The position numbers and the translations under genes are program-made. DNA of 64,000 bases from Klebsiella phage phiKp_32. Positions 2,003 to 64,000 of this stretch are shown piece after piece; within the stretch, counting starts at the first letter, position 1, and each line of letters begins with the position of its first letter. The notes under the pieces were generated by a model. It searched no databases and was not told the origin of the DNA. It saw nothing but the letters and a program-made list of their open reading frames with translations. The stretch lies in sequence record LC768500.1; one strand, written 5' to 3'.

Positions 2003-2272
2003 ATGTCTAAAGTATCAGCCAGCCCAACAAAGAGTTTGGGGTTATTGGTTGAAATCAAATCATTAATCAATGATGAACCATGTGCATCCGCCGAAGTCAT
2101 TGAGACTGACCTGGGGTGGATTGTTGAGTTTAAAACCAAAGCCGGTGTGAAGGTACTTGCTTCTACAAGAAATCCGTATCACCCCAAACTTTACAATTCC
2201 CCCAATGCAGCTTTGAATACGATCAAGTCTCTGGGCCTAGCCGAGACTAAAGTATTTTTTCTTAAGTCTTAG
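2003..2272 (+). CDS. small protein, tandem paralog A
   Basis: aggag-N7-ATG start; shares an E..GW.VEFKT..G...S.N.Y.PK....+.FLK pattern with ORF 2303..2578. Confidence 0.55.
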   Translation: MSKVSASPTKSLGLLVEIKSLINDEPCASAEVIETDLGWIVEFKTKAGVKVLASTRNPYHPKLYNSPNAALNTIKSLGLAETKVFFLKS

Positions 2273-2302
2273 GATCCAGGCTAGGTTTATTAAGGAAAGC
2301 AA

Positions 2303-2578
2303 ATGGCAGATACGTCAGAAATCATTATCACCAGAACGTTCGCTCAGTTAAAAGAACTTCGGATAATGATCAGCCGTAAATTGGTTAAGTCGGCTTCTTT
2401 GGTTGAAACTACAGAGGGATGGTCAGTAGAGTTCAAAACTGAATACGGAGATAGGATATTCTCTTCGTCAAAGAATGCGTACTATCCAAAGACCTTTAAA
2501 GGATTTACAGCGCCCATCAAAATGCTGAGAAAGATGGGATTTGACGAAGTAAAGCTGGTATTTCTAAAAGCCAAATGA
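2303..2578 (+). CDS. small protein, tandem paralog B
   Basis: Same length (91 aa) and conserved block as 2003..2272. Confidence 0.55.
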   Translation: MADTSEIIITRTFAQLKELRIMISRKLVKSASLVETTEGWSVEFKTEYGDRIFSSSKNAYYPKTFKGFTAPIKMLRKMGFDEVKLVFLKAK

Positions 2579-2599
2579 TATTAATTTAGGAGAAATGAA

Positions 2600-2926
2600 A
2601 TGAAAGTAACAATCCAAGTGCTGGAAGACAGAGAAGTCGATATTATCGAGGCCTTAGAAAAAAGTTTGTTCGTCCCCCATTTCTATTTCGTGCATCGGGG
2701 GCGGGATAAAGGAGAATTCTTAGGGGAGGATGACGATTCTATTTTGATCATCTCACAGGAGTTGGTTGATTGTTGTCCTGAACTGGTCGTATTGGAATGC
2801 GGGGATTTGGAAAAACTATGTTTCTCCCAACGACGCACCAAAACCGAAAAAGAGGTTATTATCGAATACCTCAAAGCCAATCGAGAAAAGATTATCAAAG
2901 TCACTGACTTGCCGGGGTACTATTAA
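2600..2926 (+). CDS. hypothetical protein, first member of a second paralog pair
   Basis: Shares LGE(D/P)DD..L.IS and EE..+.Y+K...+KII.+ blocks with 2926..3300. Confidence 0.5.
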   Translation: MKVTIQVLEDREVDIIEALEKSLFVPHFYFVHRGRDKGEFLGEDDDSILIISQELVDCCPELVVLECGDLEKLCFSQRRTKTEKEVIIEYLKANREKIIKVTDLPGYY

Positions 2927-3300
2927 TGTTAAAAAATCGTCCTGGGGTAATCGTTACTCATACCGACGCATCTTCTGCTCACGGTTGGATCGATCTGCTG
3001 ATTCGTGATCTCGACGATAAGAACGTTGAGACGCGATTCTGTATCTGCACCCCAACAAACCACAAGTTGGTTCATTTACTGGGCGAACCAGATGACTGCG
3101 TGCTGGAAATCTCCCAATGGAAACGAGACTCCCCGTATAACGTGGGTTATTTAGGAGCGCCGGAAATAAAGGGGTGTGAGCTTTCCGACGAAGAACTTCG
3201 TTCGTATGTGAAAGAGCACTCGGATAAAATTATTGATATCAATCTCGCGCTGGTTTTAACAAATGGGGGTGATTATGACGGCTCGTTATTTTGCCGGTGA
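2926..3300 (+). CDS. hypothetical protein, second member of the second paralog pair
   Basis: ATGA overlap with the upstream gene; similar to 2600..2926. Confidence 0.5.
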   Translation: MLKNRPGVIVTHTDASSAHGWIDLLIRDLDDKNVETRFCICTPTNHKLVHLLGEPDDCVLEISQWKRDSPYNVGYLGAPEIKGCELSDEELRSYVKEHSDKIIDINLALVLTNGGDYDGSLFCR

Positions 3301-3808
3301 TCTGCACTTAGGTGATCCTTCGATCATCAAATACCGTAAGCAGTTTAAAACGGTAAAGGAGCACGATGAATTTATCGCCGATACGATTTTGGTTAAACCT
3401 CGTGATCACGACGTGCTAACCATCGTGGGTGACGGATTCATTAAACCCGAATCGCTGTTCATCCTGAAGAAATTCCCGTATAAGAAACATCTTATCCCAG
3501 GGAATCACTGTATGGAGAAAGGCGTTAAAGTTACTGATCTCGCTGCTTTCTTCGACGTTGTTACCGGATCGTTTAAATGGAAGAGTGGGTTCTTCGTATC
3601 CCATGAACCTCAGCATCCTAATCATCTCCGAGGCCGCATCAATATTCACGCTCATTTGCATGATAAAGTAATCGAAGACGAACGTTATATCGGAGTGTCA
3701 TTAGAACAAACCGGTTATCGTTTAATCCATCACGATGAGATCTTATCTGGTTCTTATCGTACTTATCGCAAACCAACTCTTGAAGACCATTTACATTTAG
3801 GAGAATAG
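3275..3808 (+). CDS. calcineurin-like metallophosphoesterase (Ser/Thr phosphatase fold)
   Basis: Motifs GDLHLGD (GDxHG), VGDGF, PGNHC (GNH[DE]-like) and HAHLH (GHxH) appear in the canonical order. Confidence 0.55.
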   Translation: MTARYFAGDLHLGDPSIIKYRKQFKTVKEHDEFIADTILVKPRDHDVLTIVGDGFIKPESLFILKKFPYKKHLIPGNHCMEKGVKVTDLAAFFDVVTGSFKWKSGFFVSHEPQHPNHLRGRINIHAHLHDKVIEDERYIGVSLEQTGYRLIHHDEILSGSYRTYRKPTLEDHLHLGE

Positions 3809-3810
3809 CC

Positions 3811-4101
3811 ATGGCTCGTAAACCTTCTACCGTAGGCGAGATTATTAAGAAAGAGTATCTCGAACCGATGAACATGAGTATGATGGAACTCTGCCGTCGG
3901 ACTCATTCAAGTAAGGGCGCTATTTTCCATCTGCTTAGCGGGAGCAATCGTCTGAGTATTGAGATGGCGTTTAAACTCGCTAAACTCTTCAACACAACTG
4001 AAGAGTTTTGGCTGAACCTTCAGCGGCAAGTAGATCTTTACGAAGCCAAACGGAATAAAGAACTTAAAGCGACCTTAAAGAAAATTACCCCCGTTGAGTA
4101 G
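3811..4101 (+). CDS. higA: HigA-like Xre-family HTH antitoxin
   Basis: GEIIKKEYLEPMNMS..ELCRRT..SKGAIFHLLSGSNRLSIEMAFKLAKLF..TEEFWLNLQ..VDLYEA aligns along its full length with E. coli HigA. Its start lies 2 nt after the stop of the phosphoesterase gene. Confidence 0.75.
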   Translation: MARKPSTVGEIIKKEYLEPMNMSMMELCRRTHSSKGAIFHLLSGSNRLSIEMAFKLAKLFNTTEEFWLNLQRQVDLYEAKRNKELKATLKKITPVE

Positions 4102-50338: not shown

Positions 50339-53300
50339 TTATTTGCTCGTATACCCCATCCTAGGATCTGGAGCTTTCTGGTTCTGGATTTCTTTAAGCA
50401 ATTGAGCGAGTAAATCGTTAGTTCTTCCTTGGGCTTGAACTTGAGCCGTTGCGACCGGATCGGGTTGCTGAACCGGTTTAGCCAACGGAGTTGGCGGCGC
50501 AGAAGTACTTTGCTCGGTCGGGACCTTAACACGATTAAGTGGGTTAGCCGGATCGGATTTGTACGCGACCGATCCCTCACTCACCGGGGTAGAAGGCACA
50601 GCTCCGATAGGTTTAGGTCCTTGATTAACCGACGGAGTAGTAATCGCTGAAACTGCCGCGACACTGTTAGCTGTTCCTACGTTTTCCGATTTCATCGTAG
50701 GCGGTTTGGCGTCAGGGCTGACAGAGGAAACCGAACTCGGAGGAGTTTCCCCAGAAGAGGAAGGCGTCGCTCCAGCATTAGGATCCACCGTCAACTCATT
50801 GGAAGTCAAACGTTTCATATACTGCTGATAAAGTCTTGTCCTCGCCGGCATATCAGGCAAGCCGTTGGGGTTAAGTCCTTGAGCTGCATATTCAAACGAG
50901 TTGTTCTTCACAATGGACTGAAGTCGTTTACCAGTCGAGCCGTTGGAGAGATACCAGATCAAGGTTTTCGCCATGACTTCTGGATCAGTAGAAACTAACT
51001 CTGGATTCTTAACGAGGTCTTTCCCCACATACTGAGAGGCAGCTCTGAAGTTATCCTTACCCGTAAGCTGAATGAACCCACGGCCTCTGTAAAGCCATCC
51101 GTCGTTAGGACCACTGTTACCCAACCTACCGCCATAAACCGCGTTAGCGATGGCCTGAGGGCCACCAGCCACGATCTGCTGGGCCTGCCCCATCGACTTC
51201 ACTCTACCTGGGAAAATTTCCAACAGCCGACCTGGCTTGTAGTTCATGTTTTCCGCGGTATTCTTAAATCCTCCGCTTTCAAAGTTAGCCAGAGCTAACA
51301 TTTCAGCAATAAGACGAGGATCCGTGAAGCCGGCCTTAATCATCTCCTTCATGATTAATTGCTCTGCGGCTTTCTGGGGAACGCTAACACCTTTGTCTCC
51401 ACCTCCCGACCCGCCTACCGGAGTGACACCAGAAAGATCAACTGTCGACGTATCGGTATTACCCGTAATAGGTTTATAGTTGATGACTGGCTGACCGCCC
51501 GCGATGACGTTATCGCCCATTGCAGCGGTCGCAACAGCCTGATTTAATCCACCCTCACCCATTGAGTGAGCCGAGGTATACGGAACGACTTCTTTAGCTC
51601 CAGAAGCTTTAACTTCTTTGTCACCAAAATTCAATTTCGCATTCTTCGCGGCGGTATCGAGGTTATTAACGATTGCTTTAACCTGAGGTGTGATCGACCC
51701 AGAAGTTGTATTAGGGAACGGCGACCATTTAACCTCCCAAACGGAAGTTGGGGTTTTACCGATATTCACTTTGAGCCCTAAAAGCTCTTTTGCGAAATCA
51801 AAAGCGTTAGTGGCAGTCATGGACTTCCAACCCGCGCTTGGTTTCACCCCCCTCATGATCCTCACGTATTTCACCCACGCCATACAGACTGGGAGGAAAC
51901 GATCCCGGAACCACGTACACCATTGGTTAGCTTGGTCGTCAGTTATTCTGAATGAGTTCTTAAAGAGGTTATACACCGCACCTGTGGTAGAAGTGAATCT
52001 AGCGTCGTTACCGATTACACTGATGTAATCCTCACAATACCGTTCTAACTTCAACACAGCTTCAACACGCCATGGGATGTGTTCCGTGTCACCGTAGGCT
52101 GCTAATCTTAATGCGGTTATCCCGGCCAGAGGTTTATCGCCCCCTGGTAAAAGATCGGTGATGTTAATTTCCATAACCGATTTTGTTACCGGATAACGTT
52201 TATTGATCTCTTCAATATCAGAACGATCCTCGTACGTCCCACCCACTCTCATTTTAAGACTAGACCACCAACCTGCCTTCTCAGATTTTTCAACCTGTTC
52301 GGCGGAGGTCTTCATGGTCACAATGCCTTCTTTCTCTATCCCCTCAGCTGTTCTTCCGTGTCTTTCGTTAAAGCTTTTCAGTTCGTCCAAATACAACCTA
52401 ACCTGATTAATGGTTTGGTCTTTACCCATTATAGGTGTGGCTTCATCGAACTGAGCGGCTATCTGATAAGGATAAGGATTGATGGTACCGATCCTGTCGT
52501 TGATGGTGGAAACAGTAGAGTACAATTTAGCGTCGGTCGATTTATCGAACGTCTCAAAATCCCTGTACCCCGCGGTATCGATCGCAGAAGCGTAAGTCAG
52601 GAAAATAGGTTTGAAACGAAGATTAAACCAAGTGAAGTAAGCCTGCTGCTGGCCCTTGTCATTGGCTTGAGGTATGAAGCTTTGGAATATCTGTTCGAGA
52701 GGAGCTGATTTAGCTATTGAAGCCACCCCAGCGGTTACGACGACATATTCACGTAATGCTTCTTCGGCAGATCTGATCTTAGCGGCTAAATCTGACTCGA
52801 CGTCCTTGATACCATATTGAGCCATACGAAGTTTGAACTGCGACCCTTTGCCTTTGGCGTAATACTTATAGATCAAATACCCGGCAACTGCAACTGCCCC
52901 AATCCCCAACGTTACTGGATTAAATAACAGAGGAGCGACGGCAGTAGCCAAAGCACCTGTACCCGATACAATAGCCGACCCGGCAGCACTCGCACCAGAA
53001 GCAATAGCTGATCCGATCCCGAGGTTAATCCCCATAGCCGACATGGCGCTAGAACCCAAAGATACCGCCGAAGCCGCAGTAAGCGTATTGCTCGCCACAT
53101 CCTTCCAGTTAGTCCCTTCGTGTTCTTCATTGGTGGCGTCGAGGTACATTCCTAATCCAGCGGTAGCCAAACCCGCTAAGCCGAATTTAAATGCCCTTCC
53201 TCTACCTACCCTACCGCCTCTAGTTCTTCTTCCTCTACGTCGGCCTGAAGCCCCTCCTGCAGCATCAACAATATCGTCAACACCATCAGATGCCCGGCGA

Positions 53301-56300
53301 CCTAACAGACCAACAGTAAGGATCTTAGCTAACGACGTTAATCCACTTACAATAGCGGGTAGAGTGGTGATACCGAGGGTTAAGAATTTGGAGAGTTTAA
53401 CACCAAGTCCGGCGACCCCACCCAAAATAGTTCCCATGGGGTTCTTAACGAAACCCAAGAGACCATTAAGGAATCCGCCACCTTTCTTCTCTTCATCGGG
53501 AGAACCGGAACCTCTCTCTCCTTCTCTATGACCGGCGAGATCGATAATAGCGTCCTGATAACGAGATTCACGTTCAGCTTTCGCTTTACGTTCCTTATCT
53601 TCTAAAGAGTTTAAGCGAACATCATCCGTGTTTCCCATTCGGCTTGTTTCATTAACAATATCAGCCTTGATATCCGGCATGTCGTTAATGTCATAACCAA
53701 ACTTACGGCAAAGCAGAGCGTAAATACGATCGACCGAATTGGTAATAGGCGTATAGTCCGCGGTTACAAGATCGTTGATCTTATCTCCAGCTCGCTTACC
53801 GTAACCTTTAGCTCGATCACCCAGTTTCCTGCCCAGGTCAAGAAGTTTACCACCCATTACTCCCGTCATACGTTTGAGGGATTCTATTTTCATCCCCCCT
53901 GATGTAATGAGCCCATCCTCGTATTCGGCTTGGGTAATAATGACGTCGCCGTTCTCATCATACACCGGTCCGTCGATATCTCTCCAACCCTTTACAGGAA
54001 CAACGCTACCATTCAAACGTTTGAAGTATTTACCGTTCTCAAAACCCTTCCTTGTCAGAACAGGGGAATCCTCTCCGACTCGATAAACATCCATTTGGGT
54101 TATTCGATTGGTAATACCCTGACCTATGCCTTTCAATCGGTTAAGAGGATCTAACCAGTTAAAGAGTTTTAATCCGGCTGATTTCACCGCGTTTAAGCCA
54201 CGAAGCACGACGGCCTTGCCTTCGGCACTGAACAGTTTACCCGAAAGACGTTTAGCGGAGATCACGACCTTGGTTCCGAGATCAACGATCGATCCTTTGA
54301 TCTCTTTCCAGCTGGTGATAATTTTCTTTAAAACTTTGTCGTAATACTGACGAGCTCTGAGTTTACGCGCTTCGAGTATTGGATCTTCACTCTCCCCATC
54401 GTAAATGTCTTCATCGTCACTGACGTCTCTGGCGTCCGCCATACTACGAACTTTGGTATATAACGCCCAGGCTGCAGCACCACCACCGATCAACGCCGCT
54501 GTTTTAGGATCGTGAATCGCCAATCCCGCTAACCCACCTAACATCCCACCCAGCATCAGTGGTTCGTGAGCCAGCAGTTTATCCATGCCAGCACTGAAAA
54601 TATCCTTAATCCCACCAAGACTTTTAATGCGGTCGAGGATGGTTTTCTTCTGTGCGGTATCAGCGGCATCTTCAGCATCAGTTTTGGGCTTATTCACTTC
54701 GGCTGGCTGACGAGAAAGGATTTGTTTCAGGACTTCCAATTGTTCCTGATTAATATCCCTTATTCCCATTACAGAATCCGTTAAAGATTTAACTTGCTCT
54801 GGGCTTAATGCATTTCCATCTTGTCTGCCGGGAATCCCGAGTTTAAGCTGCTCGGTGAGTTCCGATAGGGCGGTAACTAATTTACCGGAATCCTTCCCGG
54901 ACAACCCACGACGGTTATTGATAATGGTTTTCGAATTACCCCCACCCATTCCACCACGAGTAGGGAGAGGGCCTACGTCATCCTCTTCGATAAGGCCTTC
55001 GTTACCATTAAGCTCTGATTTTAACCGGTCCCATATCGCATCGGTGTTAAAGAAATCTGACCCGTTTTCACTATTAATCAAATTCATTTCTCTTAATAGT
55101 GGATCGTAACCAGCGTTTCGTAACAAATCGATTTGCTGAGAAATATTAGGGAGATAGCCTTTGAGGTTTTTGGCTCGCAGACTAAGATCGGCCGCCAAAC
55201 GTTTACTTTTAGCGGTCGGCATGTTCAACTGAGCTTTAATACCAGCCAGCCCAGATTTTTTAGCCGCTTCAATATGCTGGTCGGTTAACCTGAACGACCC
55301 CCGCATCACTTGTTCAATTTCTTTACGAATCGATGGAGTTAGCCCGTCTTCGTCTTCCATCCCGAAATAGTTGAACGGGTTGAATCCTTTATCTTGGTCA
55401 ACGTCTCTCGCCAAACGATAAGATAAGAAACGTTTAGCTTCTGGTGACAACGTCCCATTTTTGTCAATGACAGAAACCATGTCGGACGTACCTGAGGCCA
55501 ACCCACTAAATTCTCTCCCATTCAACAAATTACGTTTAACCGCATTTTGGGTTTGTTTATGGCTTAAGAACTTCCCACTGCGATAATCGAAGCGCTCTTC
55601 TTTCAGGTTATCATTACCCGTGCGTATCTTTTCCAAGCTCAGATGAAGCTTAGCGAACCACCCAGGAATGATTTCATTTAACGTACGATCGGATTGACTG
55701 CTCCAGTAGCTTGGCTGAGTCAAATCCATCAAGTTACGTTTCTTGAGTTCGTACTGTTTACCGCGGGAATCGTTGATATTAAAAGAAAGATCGTTTAACC
55801 TATTTCCCAGGAAATTTTTACCTGTTTGTTTTAAACGCCACGCTCTTTCACTTAACCGTTTTTCACCGGGAGCAAGTGAGTCAAGGTAATCGTCGTAGGT
55901 AGAAAAGTCTTCTTCGTAGTTAGCGTTATTGCGGAGAATGGTTCCTGCTAAACCAGCCGCGTTAGTTCCAGCGTATGACAGAACGCTACCCAACTGTTCC
56001 AACTTGCGATATTGCCGGCGGATGTTTTTGGCTTCTTTTGGATAGAGGGTCGCAAGTTTATTAATAAGCTTAGCACCCTGCCCAGATTTAAAGAAAGCTG
56101 GTCCTCTCTCAATGACCTCGTTAGCTAGCATCTGCCCGATAATGGTTCCCATATTGAGACCCATTCCTTCGGACATCTCCATCCCCATTCTACCCGCGCC
56201 AACCATTCCGCTTAAACCAGAAAGCATTCCTTCTCTGGCTTCTTTACCGAACGTCTCGGACAGATAACCCATCACCCCACCGGACCTACGTCCGATTGTG

Positions 56301-57145
56301 GAGAAGATGGAATCACGCAATCTACCTTTAGCTGCCATAGCCAGGGAAGTTTTCTCGTAATCACTCTTACCCGAATTAAGAGTGATCTTTTTAAGCTCGT
56401 CAATCTGACGATGCATCGAGGCTTCCATGAACTTGTAGTATTTAGCGTTGGTTAAATGCATCCGAGCCAATAAGTTGATTTTAACCGCATCGTTCTTAGC
56501 CTGGATTTTATTCTGGTAACGCAAAATACCTTGAAGGGTGGTCGAGATCCCGCCTAACAGCGAATTGGTTGCTTGTTGCTGAGCTAATTGACGACCGCCA
56601 ACTACCGCGGTCATGTTGTTGATAGCCCGCCCAATACCCACCATTGTTCCTGTCTGCTGGGCCGTAACTCCGCTTATAAAACCGGCTAAGCCATCTTCAT
56701 CGACTTCTCCCATACTTGGATCAGAAGGCGTGTATCCTCCTTGATCCCAATGGCTAAAGTCCTTATTGCTGAAGGTCTCCAACCCCTGGGCAATTTTATT
56801 AGGAGCCTTGTCGCCGTGGCGGTCTAAGGTCATCTGAGCAATTGCCTGGAGATCTTCCACCATATCTTTTGATCCGGCTTTGACCTCACTTAGGATCTCC
56901 TGCTTCTTCCAATCAAACTCTCTTTTTAAATCAAAGACAGTCCCAAATGATTTTGGGAGGAGCATTTTAGCCGTTCTCAACCTACCTTCTGAACTTCCTA
57001 TCGTACCGCTGTGGAGCTCACTGAGAAAACCGCTCCCCATGCTCGCAAAGAAACCTTTTTTAGGTGCGTTATCGAAGTCGAAGTCGAAATCTATATCGCC
57101 GGCGAATGGGTCGTCTCCCCAATCGTCGAAATCATCTTTAGCCAT
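50339..57145 (-). CDS. giant virion-associated protein (2268 aa) with a C-terminal lysozyme/GH19-like peptidoglycan hydrolase domain
   Basis: Near the C-terminus: ...LANFESGGF...YRGRGFIQLTGKDNFRAASQYVG... (lysozyme-like/chitinase class I signature GRG.IQLTG..NY). Gly-rich TM-like segments and size are comparable to phiKZ gp181. Confidence 0.75.
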   Translation of the reverse strand: MAKDDFDDWGDDPFAGDIDFDFDFDNAPKKGFFASMGSGFLSELHSGTIGSSEGRLRTAKMLLPKSFGTVFDLKREFDWKKQEILSEVKAGSKDMVEDLQAIAQMTLDRHGDKAPNKIAQGLETFSNKDFSHWDQGGYTPSDPSMGEVDEDGLAGFISGVTAQQTGTMVGIGRAINNMTAVVGGRQLAQQQATNSLLGGISTTLQGILRYQNKIQAKNDAVKINLLARMHLTNAKYYKFMEASMHRQIDELKKITLNSGKSDYEKTSLAMAAKGRLRDSIFSTIGRRSGGVMGYLSETFGKEAREGMLSGLSGMVGAGRMGMEMSEGMGLNMGTIIGQMLANEVIERGPAFFKSGQGAKLINKLATLYPKEAKNIRRQYRKLEQLGSVLSYAGTNAAGLAGTILRNNANYEEDFSTYDDYLDSLAPGEKRLSERAWRLKQTGKNFLGNRLNDLSFNINDSRGKQYELKKRNLMDLTQPSYWSSQSDRTLNEIIPGWFAKLHLSLEKIRTGNDNLKEERFDYRSGKFLSHKQTQNAVKRNLLNGREFSGLASGTSDMVSVIDKNGTLSPEAKRFLSYRLARDVDQDKGFNPFNYFGMEDEDGLTPSIRKEIEQVMRGSFRLTDQHIEAAKKSGLAGIKAQLNMPTAKSKRLAADLSLRAKNLKGYLPNISQQIDLLRNAGYDPLLREMNLINSENGSDFFNTDAIWDRLKSELNGNEGLIEEDDVGPLPTRGGMGGGNSKTIINNRRGLSGKDSGKLVTALSELTEQLKLGIPGRQDGNALSPEQVKSLTDSVMGIRDINQEQLEVLKQILSRQPAEVNKPKTDAEDAADTAQKKTILDRIKSLGGIKDIFSAGMDKLLAHEPLMLGGMLGGLAGLAIHDPKTAALIGGGAAAWALYTKVRSMADARDVSDDEDIYDGESEDPILEARKLRARQYYDKVLKKIITSWKEIKGSIVDLGTKVVISAKRLSGKLFSAEGKAVVLRGLNAVKSAGLKLFNWLDPLNRLKGIGQGITNRITQMDVYRVGEDSPVLTRKGFENGKYFKRLNGSVVPVKGWRDIDGPVYDENGDVIITQAEYEDGLITSGGMKIESLKRMTGVMGGKLLDLGRKLGDRAKGYGKRAGDKINDLVTADYTPITNSVDRIYALLCRKFGYDINDMPDIKADIVNETSRMGNTDDVRLNSLEDKERKAKAERESRYQDAIIDLAGHREGERGSGSPDEEKKGGGFLNGLLGFVKNPMGTILGGVAGLGVKLSKFLTLGITTLPAIVSGLTSLAKILTVGLLGRRASDGVDDIVDAAGGASGRRRGRRTRGGRVGRGRAFKFGLAGLATAGLGMYLDATNEEHEGTNWKDVASNTLTAASAVSLGSSAMSAMGINLGIGSAIASGASAAGSAIVSGTGALATAVAPLLFNPVTLGIGAVAVAGYLIYKYYAKGKGSQFKLRMAQYGIKDVESDLAAKIRSAEEALREYVVVTAGVASIAKSAPLEQIFQSFIPQANDKGQQQAYFTWFNLRFKPIFLTYASAIDTAGYRDFETFDKSTDAKLYSTVSTINDRIGTINPYPYQIAAQFDEATPIMGKDQTINQVRLYLDELKSFNERHGRTAEGIEKEGIVTMKTSAEQVEKSEKAGWWSSLKMRVGGTYEDRSDIEEINKRYPVTKSVMEINITDLLPGGDKPLAGITALRLAAYGDTEHIPWRVEAVLKLERYCEDYISVIGNDARFTSTTGAVYNLFKNSFRITDDQANQWCTWFRDRFLPVCMAWVKYVRIMRGVKPSAGWKSMTATNAFDFAKELLGLKVNIGKTPTSVWEVKWSPFPNTTSGSITPQVKAIVNNLDTAAKNAKLNFGDKEVKASGAKEVVPYTSAHSMGEGGLNQAVATAAMGDNVIAGGQPVINYKPITGNTDTSTVDLSGVTPVGGSGGGDKGVSVPQKAAEQLIMKEMIKAGFTDPRLIAEMLALANFESGGFKNTAENMNYKPGRLLEIFPGRVKSMGQAQQIVAGGPQAIANAVYGGRLGNSGPNDGWLYRGRGFIQLTGKDNFRAASQYVGKDLVKNPELVSTDPEVMAKTLIWYLSNGSTGKRLQSIVKNNSFEYAAQGLNPNGLPDMPARTRLYQQYMKRLTSNELTVDPNAGATPSSSGETPPSSVSSVSPDAKPPTMKSENVGTANSVAAVSAITTPSVNQGPKPIGAVPSTPVSEGSVAYKSDPANPLNRVKVPTEQSTSAPPTPLAKPVQQPDPVATAQVQAQGRTNDLLAQLLKEIQNQKAPDPRMGYTSK

Positions 57146-58605: not shown

Positions 58606-58985
58606 TGATTGCAAATCACATTTGCACAGTCCCACTAGACGCGAAAGCTCTAGTGCGTATCTCCTTGAATTGTCTGGGAAGCTCACAAAAGTCTGATGCC
58701 TGCTTAGCAGGAGCCGATAAGGCAGAAATAAGTTCAGACCTGACCTATGCTAAACAATAAGGCTAAGGGTTATTAACAAGGGGCCATCAGCAGCGAACCC
58801 TACTTCGGTAGGAGACGTTCAACGACTAGAGCGGAAGCGCTCGTACTCTTTACAGGGAGTAAAGAGGAAGTGGGGAGAGGGCTAAGTTCGGCACTAGCCG
58901 AATACGTCTAAGATATAGTCTCGACGTCCAAGGTAAGACTTGGAGTACGCTAAAGCGTAGGGGTGTGGAAACACCTTAAGAACCG
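58606..58985 (+). mobile_element. group I intron (ORF-less, 380 nt) in the beta' gene
   Basis: R element GTTCAACGACTAGA (58817-58830) and S element CTAAGATATAGTC (58908-58920) form a P7 pairing. A P-like element TGAATTGTCTGGGAAG lies near 58676. The 5' exon ends in U and the intron ends in G (58985). Joining the exons restores DFD|GDQ. Confidence 0.8.
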
Positions 58986-59159
58986 GGCGACCAGTTGAAT
59001 TCTAATTCAATCAACGGAGAGGATGCTATTGCTGAAGCTAAAGCTTTAATGGGCAGACGCGATTACTATATCACCGGCACGGGGCAGTTCCTTTACAGTC
59101 CAACGGTGGAACCTCACGAATTCTTATTCCGAAATCTCAGTAACGGACTCAACCTATGA
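58986..59159 (+). CDS. RNA polymerase beta' N-terminal fragment, exon 2 (GDQLNSNSINGEDAIAEAKALMGRR...*)
   Basis: Begins GDQ, completing the DFDGDQ motif. The 22-aa span to EAKALM matches E. coli [22 protein letters not shown] in length. The stop overlaps the beta-gene ATG (ATGA). Confidence 0.75.
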   Translation, partial: GDQLNSNSINGEDAIAEAKALMGRRDYYITGTGQFLYSPTVEPHEFLFRNLSNGLNL

Positions 59160-62100
59160 GCGTATTATACCAACAGTTCTTCCGTAATTTTGTTCTTAGG
59201 AAAAAACAAGAAATTACAAATCCTAAGTTTCACCATCTGACGGATATGGTGTTGCCGAGAGAATCGGTAATGATGTATCTACCGAAGACGCAAGAAGATA
59301 TCGGCCCAAGTACCGAGGAGCCCTTAATAGGGACTTACCCTGATGGGGTTAACATTTATTTCAACAGTCTTTATATAACCCCCATCGGAAGAACTCGACC
59401 CGTTCCCTTTAACGAAAAGCAATCTATACAGCTTTATCGTAAAAGCCATTTCAAATACAACTGGGCGAGGACGCTGTCCAACTACCTGAGCCGTCGTCAG
59501 GAACTGTTGGTAAACAACATAGCGATGGGACCCCATCGTCACCGTTATGTCTTTACTCGCTTTGTTCAGTTCGAACGAGCTTACAACCAACTGGCTTCTG
59601 GGATTGAAGCCGTTAAGCAAATGAGTAAGGAAACGACCCGCAATCAATACTGGCGAATAGAACTTCCTCCAAGCATCCCCGATTATCGTCAACTGCTGGT
59701 AGCCGTCGATCATTATAAGAAGGCGTTCAAAGACGGTGTTTATACCACCACTGACAATCAGGCTGTACTCCCGTTTAAGGGCTACGGTTCTTATTGGATC
59801 ATGGATTGGTACCTCTTCTTGATAGGCGAAAAGAACTACAGTCTGTTTAATCGCTTAGATAAAGAAGAAATGGATAAACTCCACATCATCTTTAGTCATA
59901 ATGGACTCAGCTGGGTAGTTAACCTTGGTATCGTCTCTCAATGGATGGAAGAACTTAACGACAAGCACGGCAATCCCACCAGTATGCGTGTTAACGCGGC
60001 TAAACGGTTCCTGCTTGGATTTAGGGCTCTGATAGCGGGCGGCACGCTAAGCGAAACCATAGAGGAGAAATCTCATGCCGCTGAGAATGTCGGATTGGGT
60101 ACTGGAACGCCAGAAGAGGAAAGAAGAAGCCAGGAAGCTAATAAGGAATCAGAAGAAGAACCGCTGGATCTCGATGAGTCTGAAGAGATTACTGATCAGT
60201 CTGTTACTATGCTTGATCTTTTCATGGGCAGCAAAAAGGCTGATACAGAATCTGATGATGACCAAGGAGGAGAGGATTCAGGAGGAGCTGATGAGAATCA
60301 CGGAGAAGAGTGGGCTGCAGCGGTCGACGATGAATTACTTTATAACGCCGAAACAGAAGGATTAGGGGAAACCAAGAAAGTTATTTTCAGTACCCCAGAA
60401 TCTGGTATCCTGAGAGCCTTAGAGCAAAGAGCCAAGGCCGGGACATTAACTGTTGCGGAACAACGTTATTACACTAATCTCGCGCAATCATACAAAACGA
60501 TCAAAATGCCTAACGGTGAAAGTCTTGAAAGTTTTGTTAAGATCGATCAGGCCAAACTCCGCCACCTTCCTGCTAAAATTGCTCCTGAGATGAGAGGGAT
60601 CATCGACCCTTCTCAGCTACAAAGTAGAGCGACCAATCTTAAAACGAAATACTCTGAAGAATTCCTTAATCGGGATATAGCCGGGATGATACTGAACATT
60701 CAGAACGCCGGTATCGTTTTAACCGACCTGAAACGTGAACGTATCGTCAATGCGGAATCGGCTTACGACGTTTATACCATGAACGTCCATCCTGTTGGCG
60801 GATCGCCTAAGACCGCAATGTTCCGCATCCCCAAAATTGACAAAGACGGAACCTTCACTGTCGATGGGGTAAAACAACATCTTCAACTTCAGCGTATGGA
60901 AATACCAATTCGTAAGATAAACTCTGAGCAGGTTGCTTTGACGAGTTATTATGACCGCAAGATCATGATGTCTCGTTCGACAAAGGTTGCAGATGATTAC
61001 GGATTGTGGCTGAACAAACAACTTATTCTGTTGGGTGAGGCCGGTAAAGTATCTGGGGTGTTGGGCGATGTCTATAATCGTAGTTACGCTGTTCCTCGTA
61101 CTTATTCTGCGTTAGCCAAGCGGTACCGAACATTAAAGGCTGGTGGGATTGAATTCAACTTCGATCTTTCTAGTCTTGTTGGCTCAGAGAAAGAAATCAA
61201 GAAACTGATTTCTCCTAACTGGGTTCCGGTGGCTAAAGAAGGTGACGGCTTCATCTTTATGGATGATGGCGGTAACCTTTACAAAGATAAGACACACATT
61301 GGTTCTTTCGAAAGCCGCTGTGGAATTGACACGACGAAGGCCCCAGTCGATATCGTTACGGTGAATGTAAACGGATACGCTTTCCCTATCGGTGTAGTGC
61401 TCGCTTACTACTTCGGATTCGACGAACTTCTTAAAGCACTCAATGCTGACTATCGGACCGTTCCGGCCGGTGAGAAAGTTCGGATGGGTCAGGACGAATA
61501 CGCGATAACCTTTAACGACGAAACGCTTATTTTCAACAGACGGGATAGTTTAACCGCACTTATCATGGGCGGATTCCGGAAGTTAGCGAATCTCAGTAAC
61601 TTCTCTCGCTATGACCTAAACACAAAAGGTGTATGGGTGCCGGCTATCGGGGATAAGAAAGTCAAACCTGGTCATTTTGATGAAATGCGTTTGATGTTCG
61701 AAATGTTCATCGATCCGATCACCAAATCTGAACTGGTTAAAAGGGGCTATCCGACTGAGCTTCATTATCTCATGATCGAAGGCGTGAAAATGCTGAACAC
61801 CGATCGAACTGCTCACGAGATAGAATTAACTGAGCAACGTTTCGTTGGGTATGAACGTTTTGCTGGCCGAGTCTATAATGAGATTGTTAAGTCAACGCGT
61901 CAATTCAGGAATAAAGGTAACGACAAACGTTTCACCTTCGATATGAACCCTGAAGCGGTTATCATGAGTATCATCACCGATACAAGTGTAAACCTAGTCG
62001 AAGAGGTTAACCCCATCCACGAAATCAAAGAACAGGAAGTTGTTACCTTTGGTGGTACTGGTGGGCGAAGTGAAACGACAATGGTCAGACGTACACGTGG

Positions 62101-62308
62101 TCAGCAAGAGAACTATGCTGGGGTTATCTCCGAGGCTGGTAAAGACTCCGGTAAAGTTGGGTTCGTGAGTTACTTAACGAGCAACCCTAAGATCGCCGAT
62201 TTCCGTGGTAACGTCGACCTAAGCATGCCTGACACTCTGAGCGGCAGACTGTCGGTAACATCCAACCTTTTAGCTCACTCGACCTCCGATGACCCAAAAC
62301 GGTTAACT
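59156..62308 (+). CDS. RNA polymerase beta subunit (or N-terminal fragment), exon 1
   Basis: NPIHEIKEQEVVTFGGTGG vs NPLSEITHKRRISALGPGG; GKVGFVSYLTSNPKIADFRG vs [38 protein letters not shown] vs [19 protein letters not shown]. Acidic low-complexity insert near the N-terminus. Confidence 0.8.
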
Positions 62309-63742
62309 GTAATATTTTCCTGAGTACAATATTATGTTGAGACTCAGGAGCAAATTAAGATGAAACCAATTGAGTGTAAAGATTTTCCAGGGTATTACGA
62401 GATACCCAATTTTTCCAAGTACTGCATTAATAAAAAATCAGATATTATTCATAAACGCAAAAACAAAAAAATCAGACAGTACGACGTTAAATCTTCTGTG
62501 ACGTCCAGGCCAGAAACCGGGTGTTATAAAAGAGTGACGATGTATTCTGATGATAAAAAACTCCACGCCTTTTCGGTCCATCGGTTAATGGGCTTGGTGT
62601 TTAAACATCCTGGTGCCGGGTTTCACTCTCTACAGGTCCACCACGGAGATGGGATAAAATTTCATAACGACATCGATAACTTAGAATGGGTTACACCCAA
62701 GACCAATATTGTTTTAGCAAACGATTATTACATGGGTAAAGCTAAAATACCTGTCCAAGCTAGGTCTAAAAACGGTGAAGTTCTAAATTTTTCTAATCTA
62801 AGTGATTGTGCTAAATTACTCGGGATCCATAGGACAACCCTTATCTCCAGATTAAGTACGTTTGGAGAAAAGTTTGTTCACCCAGAGGGCTATCAACTGA
62901 GGTACGGAAATTCCGATAAGCCATGGGTTGCACCAGACGAAGAATCAGCTAAGGACTTAGATGAGTTTTACTCGTCACCCATTTTGGTAAAAAATCTCAA
63001 CACTGGCGAAGTGAGGGAATTTAAAACAGCCAAAGGCGTGATGGAATTAATAGTAAGATCTCCGTCAAGCATAAGTACTTTGAGTAATGATTCGACTCAA
63101 CCCATTGTGATGGGTAAAGATAACGTACCGTACATTCTCATAAAAAAATATTCTGGGGTCGATTTCAGGAGAGTTGACGATCCAATGAATGATTTTGTCG
63201 AACAACAGACCAATACCAGAACGGTAGTTGCGACGAATGTTACGACTAATGAAAAGAGAGTTTATACGACCGCGCAGGCGTGCGCATCTGATTTTGGAAT
63301 AGGAAAAACTACACTTAATTGGCGTCTTAAGAAACCCATCCCTGGTGTTTTCGACGGATGGATTTTTAGATATTACGAGGCCCGTATGGGAGGAAACACC
63401 CATACGCAATAATCTTTAATTGTTCTGGGACGATCTCGAAGACTCTCATACCAAAGCGGAATACGAAAGTATAGACGTCATGGTTTTAAAAGTTGAGAAG
63501 AGAGACGATCTAGCAGCGAAGCACCTACGTATCTTCGAGAGAAGAGATAGGGTGAACGTTCAACGACTATGGGTGAAACTCCCAGTAGATTTTACATGAA
63601 GTAATTTCGAAACAGGATTCCCTTCGAGTGAGCTGAAGAAGCTCGATACTCATGGGTGAAATATAGTCTGCTCCCTACGGCGACGTAGCGGCGGGTGTCA
63701 TAGCACACCGGGTTGAAGGAAGCAACCGGACATAAGGCTCTG
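62309..63742 (+). mobile_element. group I intron carrying an HNH homing endonuclease gene, inserted in the beta gene (boundaries +/-6 nt)
   Basis: R element GTTCAACGACTAT (63558-63570) and S element GAAATATAGTC (63658-63669). The downstream frame encodes HKALFSGVQQSQGVSA, which continues the E. coli beta [15 protein letters not shown] alignment. The track ORF 59156..62323 runs into the intron and terminates at 62323. Confidence 0.75.
62360..63412 (+). CDS. intron-encoded HNH homing endonuclease
   Basis: LQVHHGDGIKFHNDIDNLEWVTPKTN HNH motif; RBS ctcaggagcaaattaagATG; located between the 5' splice site and the intron catalytic core. Confidence 0.8.
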   Translation: MKPIECKDFPGYYEIPNFSKYCINKKSDIIHKRKNKKIRQYDVKSSVTSRPETGCYKRVTMYSDDKKLHAFSVHRLMGLVFKHPGAGFHSLQVHHGDGIKFHNDIDNLEWVTPKTNIVLANDYYMGKAKIPVQARSKNGEVLNFSNLSDCAKLLGIHRTTLISRLSTFGEKFVHPEGYQLRYGNSDKPWVAPDEESAKDLDEFYSSPILVKNLNTGEVREFKTAKGVMELIVRSPSSISTLSNDSTQPIVMGKDNVPYILIKKYSGVDFRRVDDPMNDFVEQQTNTRTVVATNVTTNEKRVYTTAQACASDFGIGKTTLNWRLKKPIPGVFDGWIFRYYEARMGGNTHTQ

Positions 63743-64000
63743 TTCTCCGGGGTTCAGCAAAGCCAGGGGGTGTCTGCGACTAACTATCAGACCAACTGGT
63801 TACGTACCGGGGATGAATTGGTTATCGCACACCGGACATCCGAGCTTTATTCTAAACCAGCTAAACTCGACGGTAAAGTAATAAAGCTTACCAAAGAAGG
63901 CTTGGTGGTCGAATACAAGGATGGAACGACGGACAGTTATCCGTTAGGCTTAACCATCGGCAGTGCGTCTGGTGAATTCCACAGACACACAAGAGTCACT
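63743..64000 (+). CDS. RNA polymerase beta, exon 2 (3'-truncated at the window edge)
   Basis: FSGVQQSQGVSATNYQTNWLRTGDELVIAHRTSELYSKPAKLDGKVIKL... parallels E. coli [42 protein letters not shown]; open to the end of the window. Confidence 0.7.

Follow-up and report, generated by a model that had tools for sequence, protein, structure and literature searches.

The 64,000-nucleotide (nt) stretch of Klebsiella phage phiKp_32 analysed in the present study (LC768500.1; hereafter the window) carries on its plus strand, at positions 62304 to 63737, a 1434-nt insertion that we interpret, with a probability of roughly 0.9, as a mobile self-splicing group I intron of IA2-like type within the virion RNA polymerase (RNAP) beta gene of a Miamivirus-like, nucleus-forming jumbo phage. 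The observations comprise a match to a ribozyme family, a covarying structure that includes the P7.1 and P7.2 helices, exact intron-minus alleles in sibling phages, restoration of the reading frame, homology of an encoded HNH endonuclease including its catalytic histidine, and a patchy distribution; splicing itself, nicking, homing and regulation by a leader hairpin are predicted from these sequence features. A preliminary description of the locus had recognised an endonuclease-bearing group I intron here at 62309 to 63742. Its length of 1434 nt stands, and its coordinates do not: on the comparisons given below, both ends appear to have been set 5 nt too far 3'.

A megablast search of GenBank phages with positions 59156 to 64000 as the query returned six records, representing five distinct phages, at 97% identity. 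Raoultella phage VB_ZK_P1 (locus L002) matched the query end to end, whereas Klebsiella phages Miami, KPN8 and YC1 and Stenotrophomonas phage BUCTxx100 matched it in two pieces, with 3411 nt in place of 4845 nt. These four phages encode beta in a single uninterrupted coding sequence (CDS) of 4257 nt and 1418 amino acids (aa) from which exactly the 1434-nt block of the window is absent, and because of this exact absence the comparison places an insertion far beyond chance. The intron-minus allele that the preliminary description had suggested looking for reads ...GAT GAC CCC AAA CGT GCT CTG TTC TCC GGG... (DDPKRALFSG; ...CCCAAACGTGCTCTGTTCTCC..., also written GATGACCCCAAACGTGCTCTGTTCTCCGGGG) in Miami, KPN8 and BUCTxx100; YC1 has the continuous CDS of 4257 nt as well. 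The DNA alignment between the window and Miami breaks after 62301 and restarts at 63737, from which point the two are again collinear, and the sole difference between intron-plus and intron-minus alleles at the junction is GT versus TG. The HNH-bearing beta intron is present in one of the five distinct GenBank siblings, namely VB_ZK_P1, in which it went unrecognised, the locus being annotated as separate CDSs for four unrelated hypothetical proteins.

The interrupted gene was assigned by homology. Exon 1 (59156 to 62303, plus strand) forms most of an open reading frame (ORF) listed at 59156 to 62323 (plus strand, 1055 aa), which ends ...STSDDPKRLTVIFS (also written ...AHSTSDDPKRLTVIFS) before its stop codon; the exon itself ends ...GAT GAC CCA AAA CGG U, that is, DDPKR and one base of the codon that follows. 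In pairwise comparisons exon 1 was 25% identical to PhiPA3 gp211 over its full length (E=3e-100), and the gene upstream of it (beta') was 34% identical to PhiPA3 gp212 (E=2e-90); exon 1 is also collinear with CPT_Miami_233. GenBank records gp211 and gp212 as homologs of PhiKZ gp178 and gp180, which are virion RNAP subunits (PMC8287921). On this homology the interrupted gene encodes the beta subunit of the virion RNAP, orthologous to PhiPA3 gp211 and PhiKZ gp178, and the phage is a jumbo phage of chimallivirus type. The beta and beta' proteins have diverged too far for Pfam, which gave no match to either ORF. In a sequence search of PDB, full-length Miami beta matched the Thermus RNAP beta subunit (E=4.5e-5), with LSVTSNLLAHSTSDDPKRALFSGVQQSQGV opposite a 30-residue Thermus segment and DDPKRALFSGVQQSQ aligned with the 16-residue catalytic-site motif, so that the earlier placement of the insertion in this conserved region holds; the insertion motif DDPKR^(A/S)LFSGVQQSQ (a caret marks the splice junction) corresponds to 16 residues of the E. 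coli subunit. Downstream, the homologous frame is closed until a TAG at 63701 to 63703, is open from 63704 to the end of the window and reads ..HKALFSGVQQSQGVSAT (also HTGLKEATGHKALFSGVQQSQGVSATNYQ...), in agreement with the break, stop and resumption already reported in the preliminary description. Exon 2 (63738 to 64000, plus strand) begins CU CUG UUC UCC GGG ..., translated as (S)LFSGVQQSQGVSAT..., and continues past the end of the window. Joining 62303 to 63738 gives a frame without stops to the window end, collinear with intron-less Miami beta. An intein is not indicated at this position, the exon-1 frame stopping at TGA 62321 to 62323 and being closed again up to 63703.

The Rfam family Intron_gpI (RF00028) matched 63354 to 63690 on the plus strand over the full length of its model with 51.9 bits (E=2.7e-10), above its gathering score of 50 bits, and was the only family above the Rfam threshold in the entire window. 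The R element (GTTCAACGACTA, 63558 to 63569) and the S element (AATATAGTC, 63660 to 63668) were found where the first reading had located its P7 core. A combination of RNAalifold and a counted structure model places a P2 hairpin at 63384 to 63405 (GUAUGGG paired with CCCAUAC, loop AGGAAACA), in which seven of seven pairs are changed on both sides among relatives, followed by the ribozyme core from P3 to P3' at 63411 to 63619. Within the core lie P3 (63411 to 63416 with 63614 to 63619), P4 and P5 (63421 to 63515), P6 (63516 to 63559) and the 5' strand of P7 (63565 to 63569), with P7.1 (63570 to 63584) and P7.2 (63591 to 63605) between P7 and P3'. These are followed on the same strand by P8 (63620 to 63656), the 3' strand of P7 (63664 to 63668), P9 with a GCGA loop (63669 to 63693), P9.1 (63694 to 63709) and P9.2 (63711 to 63727), the last of which is 100% paired with four of five pairs changed on both sides. 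The presence of P7.1 and P7.2 at this place suggests the IA2 subgroup, which is typical of phages.

This structure is shared by divergent copies. Applied to nine related introns, RNAalifold recovered P2, P4 to P6, P7, P7.1, P7.2, P9 and P9.1, and 35 of the 61 pairs showed compensatory changes. A full hand-written model (P1, P2, the P3 pseudoknot, P4 to P9.2 and P8) was then counted on a second alignment of nine introns, in which 90.1% of its cells were paired, against 37 to 43% when the pairing partners were slid by one to three columns, and 42 of 83 pairs were changed on both sides, against 9 to 17 when slid; none of 500 shuffles reached the observed pairing values. Between the window and VB_ZK_P1, pairing of P7.2, P8 and P9.2 is likewise kept through compensatory changes. 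Since the core helices keep pairing in this way, the comparison indicates that the RNA structure is under ongoing selection.

The 5' splice site was derived from the P1 helix. No guide sequence adjoins it (62304 to 62360 inspected). The P1 and P2 offered by the Rfam alignment itself, within the end of the endonuclease ORF, looked unreliable, and the guide was located only via the ORF-less copies of the intron in the Aeromonas records CF8 and PS1. In the window the internal guide G-G-C-C lies at 63379 to 63382 (plus strand), directly 5' of P2, and would pair with the P1 5' strand at 62301 to 62304 (plus strand; G62301, G62302 and U62303, then U62304 beyond the splice site) as C63382-G62301, C63381-G62302, G63380-U62303 and G63379-U62304. 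Across nine aligned introns P1 was 100% paired, with the U.G wobble in nine of nine and position -2 as G:C in five and A:U in four. A G(C/U)C guide stands directly 5' of P2 in all 12 introns of a wider table and covaries with the exon triplet, exon GGU going with guide GCC in five and exon GAU with guide GUC in seven. The copies in CF8, PS1 and the second intron of metagenome contig L010 have ...RGG U^ in common at their 5' junctions, with GCCC directly 5' of P2; the GAU set (the PhiPA3 intron, the beta' introns of the window and VB_ZK_P1, the first L010 intron [L010-A], L014, L015 and L017) has GUCC before P2. Group I ribozymes cleave 3' of the wobble U, and the wobble U here is U62303; the predicted 5' splice site therefore follows U62303. 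A long-range pairing of the guide GCCC with GGG after P9.1, proposed by RNAalifold, was discarded as an artefact of an exon-less alignment, its covariation being inconsistent.

At the 3' side the terminal motif GGACAUAAGG (63728 to 63737, plus strand) places the terminal, or omega, G at G63737, position 10 of the family's 3' end GGACANNNNG. The exon starts after position 10 in all five introns whose frame is unambiguous, namely L010-A and L015 (exon CCA.. = PKR), the VB_ZK_P1 beta' intron (CAA CTT = QL) and both introns of contig L044 (CCC AAA and AAA GGC). The predicted ligated message is thus CCA AAA CGG U^CU CUG UUC (DDPKRSLFSG, against Ala for Ser in the siblings), with the RNA junction ...CCAAAACGGU^CUCUGUUCUCC... 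in a transcript 1434 nt shorter than the genomic DNA, and the junction peptide ...DDPKRSLFSGVQQSQ... (also SLFSGVQQSQGVSATNYQTNWLR), preceded by ...STSDDPKR. Serine is plausible at the junction residue, since Ser, Gly or Ala occurs there among intron-less relatives (Ser in an intron-less KRSLYAS) and Val in the inferred spliced products of PhiPA3 and L044.

Two readings of the junction were left by the exon sequences, G62302 joined to G63737 (Ala) or U62303 joined to C63738 (Ser). The former would have the same intron spliced one base earlier on each side, with the exon ending in G62302, a terminal G63736 and the product DDPKR-A-LFSG found in the siblings. It agrees with the break of the Miami alignment at 62301/63737, needs a single synonymous difference (CGG versus CGT), and is compatible with the G that all copies of this intron have at 63736. 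We nevertheless hold it to be improbable: its 5' site would follow a G and not the near-universal U of the U.G wobble, which the covarying P1 helix puts at U62303, and relatives with the GGACANNNNG end and an unambiguous frame always start the exon after position 10. The G at position 9 is moreover present even where the exon begins CCN or AAA, and further members of the family have C, A or T there.

The junctions of the preliminary description (62309 to 63742, product DDPKRLT^FSG) also have a U on the 5' side and a G at 63742, are 1434 nt apart and keep the frame, yet their chance of being correct is close to nil. The six bases after 63736 read GCT CTG in the window and GCA CTT in VB_ZK_P1, changes at third codon positions only, and GCTCTG (63737 to 63742) matches Miami exon sequence, on which grounds these bases are taken as exon. 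Conversely, TAACT (62304 to 62308) is read as intron because it is not conserved in CF8 or PS1; nor is it in the L010 copy, although all three share GGU^. No guide complementary to UUAACU was found in front of P2.

Several points weigh against a functional intron with these ends. The Rfam score is only 2 bits over its threshold, and the near-identical VB_ZK_P1 copy scores 49.9 bits; the Pfam match of the endonuclease to HNH_3 (23.7 bits) falls about 1 bit below the cut-off of 24.8; the exon contributes only 3 bp to P1; and the predicted product has an Ala to Ser change relative to the intron-less siblings, beside a catalytic Arg. In addition, predicted introns at PhiKZ gp56, gp72 and gp179 gave no spliced reads in an Oxford Nanopore Technologies transcriptome (PMC10914365), and by analogy an HNH gene beside a jumbo-phage RNAP gene should therefore not automatically be equated with a working intron. 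This last observation, together with the fact that split RNAP subunits are common in jumbo phages (PMC8287921), is in line with a protein-level split, in which beta would be made as two polypeptides, the HNH protein would be a free-standing nuclease and the ribozyme-like sequence a dead relic; VB_ZK_P1 is annotated as separate CDSs, and an in-frame TTG (63713) and GTG (63770) could start the second beta piece. A split at this point would, however, fall within the catalytic DDxxR(A/S)L motif, and any residues encoded between the stop and a restart codon would be missing; siblings 97% identical have one continuous beta gene of 1418 aa, and the core helices have kept pairing through compensatory changes, even between the window and VB_ZK_P1, all of which makes it very improbable. 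No relative was found in which beta ends here and the downstream segment starts independently, the outcome that the preliminary description, together with the lack of a ribozyme-model match, regarded as decisive against an intron. Contig L016, with a 20-nt gap between its ORFs, was considered as a true split and rejected, since its beta gene is uninterrupted and the gene call is frameshifted further upstream.

Between the 5' splice site and the guide, and hence in the P1 loop of the self-splicing intron favoured here, lies an HNH homing endonuclease gene of the I-HmuI/gp210 type (62360 to 63412, plus strand, 350 aa), with an N-terminal HNH and C-terminal NUMOD and helix-turn-helix modules; approximately 35 nt at its 3' end are shared with the guide, P2 and the first part of P3. 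The identification in the preliminary description is borne out by matches to PHROG 59 'HNH endonuclease' (E=2.8e-26), Pfam NUMOD1 (25.1 bits, cut-off 22.8) and PDB I-HmuI 1U3E (E=1.5e-4), and residues 143 to 169 gave weak Pfam matches to HTH_30 and HTH_8. The motif ...VHH95GDGIKFHNDIDNLEWVTPKTN... aligns with VDHKDG...NLRWVTQKIN of I-HmuI, and both the general-base His and the metal-binding Asn are present in the alignment. Over 342 aligned positions, the full length, the protein is 29% identical to PhiPA3 gp210 (E=2e-36), with His95 opposite gp210 H82, the mutation of which abolishes nicking by gp210 (PMC11620839). It is 100% identical in VB_ZK_P1.

The leader of this gene contains a P1-loop hairpin (62317 to 62350, plus strand) whose 9-bp stem, formed by 62317 to 62325 with 62342 to 62350, buries the Shine-Dalgarno sequence AGGAG (62346 to 62350). 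The predicted fold of 62304 to 62365 has a free energy of -15 kcal/mol (z=-3.1), and a longer stretch reaches z=-3.9. The HNH genes of the PhiPA3 intron and the VB_ZK_P1 beta' intron likewise have hairpins that include a Shine-Dalgarno sequence ahead of their starts, and the hairpin of the window likely restrains HNH translation. The exon-1 frame extends 18 nt into the intron, and its stop codon TGA 62321 to 62323 is inside the 5' arm of the hairpin, so that read-through translation from exon 1 is possibly coupled to HNH expression.

The window intron and its VB_ZK_P1 counterpart differ at three positions in the first 1286 nt and at 14 in the last 148 nt, several of the latter being compensatory changes in P7.2, P8 and P9.2. 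This mosaic divergence suggests a recombination breakpoint within the ribozyme, between 63305 and 63589, for example through transfer of an HNH cassette between pre-existing introns. The low divergence of exon 1 beside the intron was considered as a co-conversion tract and rejected, Miami being equally similar there.

Taken together, these features would fit the following scheme. The exon end GGU62303 would pair with the guide G63380-C-C approximately 1.08 kb downstream, with the HNH gene looped out in L1; an external guanosine would attack after the wobble U62303, the freed exon would then attack after the terminal G63737, and ligation would yield ...CCA AAA CGG U^CU CUG UUC..., encoding DDPKRSLFSG. 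The HNH/NUMOD endonuclease most likely nicks intron-less Miami-type alleles during co-infection, and repair templated by the genome that has the intron would pass on both the intron and the adjoining GT-for-TG change, which P1 needs. The hairpin over the HNH ribosome-binding site, entered by exon-1 ribosomes reading to TGA 62321, likely limits translation of the endonuclease.

A closely comparable element has been characterised in PhiPA3, where gp210 is encoded in a putative group I intron of gp211/209, directly after two conserved Asp residues, nicks both the intron-less site and the PhiKZ gp178 site, and confers an advantage on PhiPA3 when phages co-infect (Birkholz et al., Science 2024; PMC11620839). 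The two introns share an orthologous virion RNAP beta host gene, a place in the same catalytic motif, and an arrangement in which a short leader with a Shine-Dalgarno hairpin is followed by an HNH ORF in the P1 loop and then by guide, P2 and core; their HNH proteins are homologous over the full length, and both match Rfam Intron_gpI. They differ in that PhiPA3 splices after DD^ (GAU, guide GUC; hereafter the DD site) and the window intron is predicted to splice after DDPKR+U (GGU, guide GCC), 10 nt further downstream (the +10 site), and in their ribozyme cores, which are only 52% identical and have different 3' domains. Nicking, homing and competitive advantage have been demonstrated experimentally for gp210, whereas the window HNH protein is known from its sequence. 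By these comparisons the window intron belongs to an already known kind of element, a mobile intron of the PhiPA3 gp210 type at a neighbouring site. We found no mention of introns in Miami-like phages in the literature searched.

Similarity to I-HmuI of SPO1 and I-BasI of Bastille extends to the HNH core sequence (1U3E) and to the location of an HNH gene within a phage group I intron at a conserved motif of an essential polymerase gene. In those phages, however, the host gene is a DNA polymerase and not RNAP beta, and the window protein is longer, with extra NUMOD and helix-turn-helix modules; the SPO1 intron ORF is in P8, not in the P1 loop. The T4 td, nrdB and sunY introns of subgroup IA2 have comparable core elements (GUUCAACGACUA and AUAUAGUC) and P7.1 and P7.2 between P7 and P3', but carry GIY-YIG or HNH endonucleases in P6 or P9 loops and reside in nucleotide-metabolism genes. 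The introns of Aeromonas CF8, PS1 and PS2 and of contigs L010 (its second intron, L010-B), L013 and L103 occupy the identical site (..RGG U^) and have the GCC guide, the 3' end GGACANNNGG^ and, for the copies aligned, 71 to 82% core identity. Those of known full length (CF8, 403 nt; PS1, 391 nt; L010-B) measure 384 to 403 nt, and their P1 loop holds only a small hairpin in place of an endonuclease gene. The GenBank records of CF8 and PS1 each list two beta fragments and leave the introns unannotated.

Further relatives were sought by a protein search with 230 residues around the junction, the matches of which were mostly 340 to 390-aa ORFs corresponding to exon 2, and contigs were fetched from these matches. 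Among them, L014, L015 and L017 carry ORF-less introns at the DD site and L012 and L016 are intron-less; +10-site introns were found in L013 by this search and in L103 by a metagenome scan. In L010 and L011 both sites are occupied, leaving a 10-nt micro-exon (CCAAAAAGGU) between the introns; the tandem ORF-less introns of L010 (5249 to 6022) score 55.9 and 52.2 bits, both over the Rfam gathering score. A 26-nt core pattern gave no match in IMG/VR, and of the four loci matched by a 17-mer, L006, L007 and L009 had no Rfam intron match at E<=0.001 and were taken as chance. On this sampling, the beta motif is often interrupted in the clade, and the interruptions are distributed patchily among close relatives, a pattern that mobile introns should show.

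Contig L044, a 287-kb jumbo-phage contig from a metagenome, carries on its reverse strand an HNH-bearing DD-site intron in beta and a second beta intron approximately 900 nt downstream, after GD^K of GDK..GNQMKG, with a GAU/GUC P1 and a GGACAAAAGG^ end. It was considered as a second micro-exon case and rejected, an ordinary exon (PKRVNFASVQ...) following the DD-site intron. Introns sharing the P9.1-P9.2-GGACANNNNG 3' module were also seen in metagenome contigs L036, L021, L049, L080, L090 and L134, some of which hold two; the first four score 70 to 97 bits with Rfam where listed, and L090 and L134 have no listed match.

The preliminary description had also reported an intron in the adjoining beta' gene, which we could substantiate. 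The beta' intron (58606 to 58985) is a 380-nt, ORF-less group I element that splits virion RNAP beta' within its catalytic Mg2+ motif, at DFD^GD (GAU^ ... G^GGC GAC), and was found in a permissive Intron_gpI scan at 58613 to 58943 (37.5 bits, E=6e-7). Miami, KPN8, BUCTxx100 and YC1 lack it, and with 58605 joined to 58986 the window encodes a 537-aa protein resembling that of Miami. The statement that the two cores of the window are nearly identical holds for the universally conserved R/S core alone, as the ribozyme cores are 48% identical overall, and by this measure the beta intron is not a duplicate of the beta' intron and belongs to a different sub-family. The guide-P2 region of the beta' intron (ACAGUCCCACUAGA) resembles that of the PhiPA3 beta intron. 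VB_ZK_P1 carries a different beta' intron (2100 to 3836, 1737 nt) located after DFDGD^, 6 nt downstream of that of the window, with its own 424-aa HNH gene (2186 to 3460) and a 3' domain resembling the window beta intron, so that two phages 97% identical have different introns at adjacent sites of one beta' motif. Directly 3' of the window beta' intron, at 58992 to 59009, a run of six codons differs synonymously from that in Miami and VB_ZK_P1 (CAG TTG AAT TCT AAT TCA versus CAA CTT AAC AGT AAC TCC), which may reflect a co-conversion tract from a divergent donor or loss of a nuclease target site.

At least five distinct insertion points lie within a few codons of active-site residues, namely DFD^GD and DFDGD^ in beta', and DD^, DDPKR+1^ and GD^K in beta. 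It is conceivable, if rather unlikely on present evidence, that the catalytic motifs of the virion RNAP in this clade are a hot spot of an arms race in which introns serve as a weapon, nicking Miami-type competitors as gp210 does PhiKZ, and as a shield; in the latter role, insertion at the +10 site may break up the sequence that gp210-class nucleases recognise and thereby guard the phage's own genome.

For annotation, the predicted product in VB_ZK_P1, CF8 and PS1 becomes a single beta subunit of approximately 1418 aa. No intron nuclease other than PhiPA3 gp210 has been shown to improve the competitiveness of a virus, and the present case would extend this to enterobacterial jumbo phages, which are of therapeutic interest, with a second insertion site 10 nt from that of gp210. 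Natural intron-plus and intron-minus pairs at 97% identity (phiKp_32 and VB_ZK_P1 versus Miami, KPN8 and YC1) are suited to competition experiments, and the family rule of an exon GGU or GAU, a GCC or GUC guide before P2 and a GGACANNNNG^ end should permit exact splice-site calls in other jumbo phages. Within VB_ZK_P1, CDS VBZKP1_273 is a 59-aa ORF corresponding to window positions 63420 to 63599, wholly within the ribozyme core from P4 to P7.2, and is almost certainly not a gene; the start of VBZKP1_274, equivalent to GTG 63770, is likewise an artefact of intron-blind annotation. Divergent to the RNAP genes, on the minus strand, lies an ORF of 2268 aa (50339 to 57145), whose homologs are annotated as a tape measure protein in Miami and as an endolysin in BUCTxx100 and YC1, and contain a Glyco_hydro_19 domain in one relative; its product is probably a virion-associated lysin or ejection protein.

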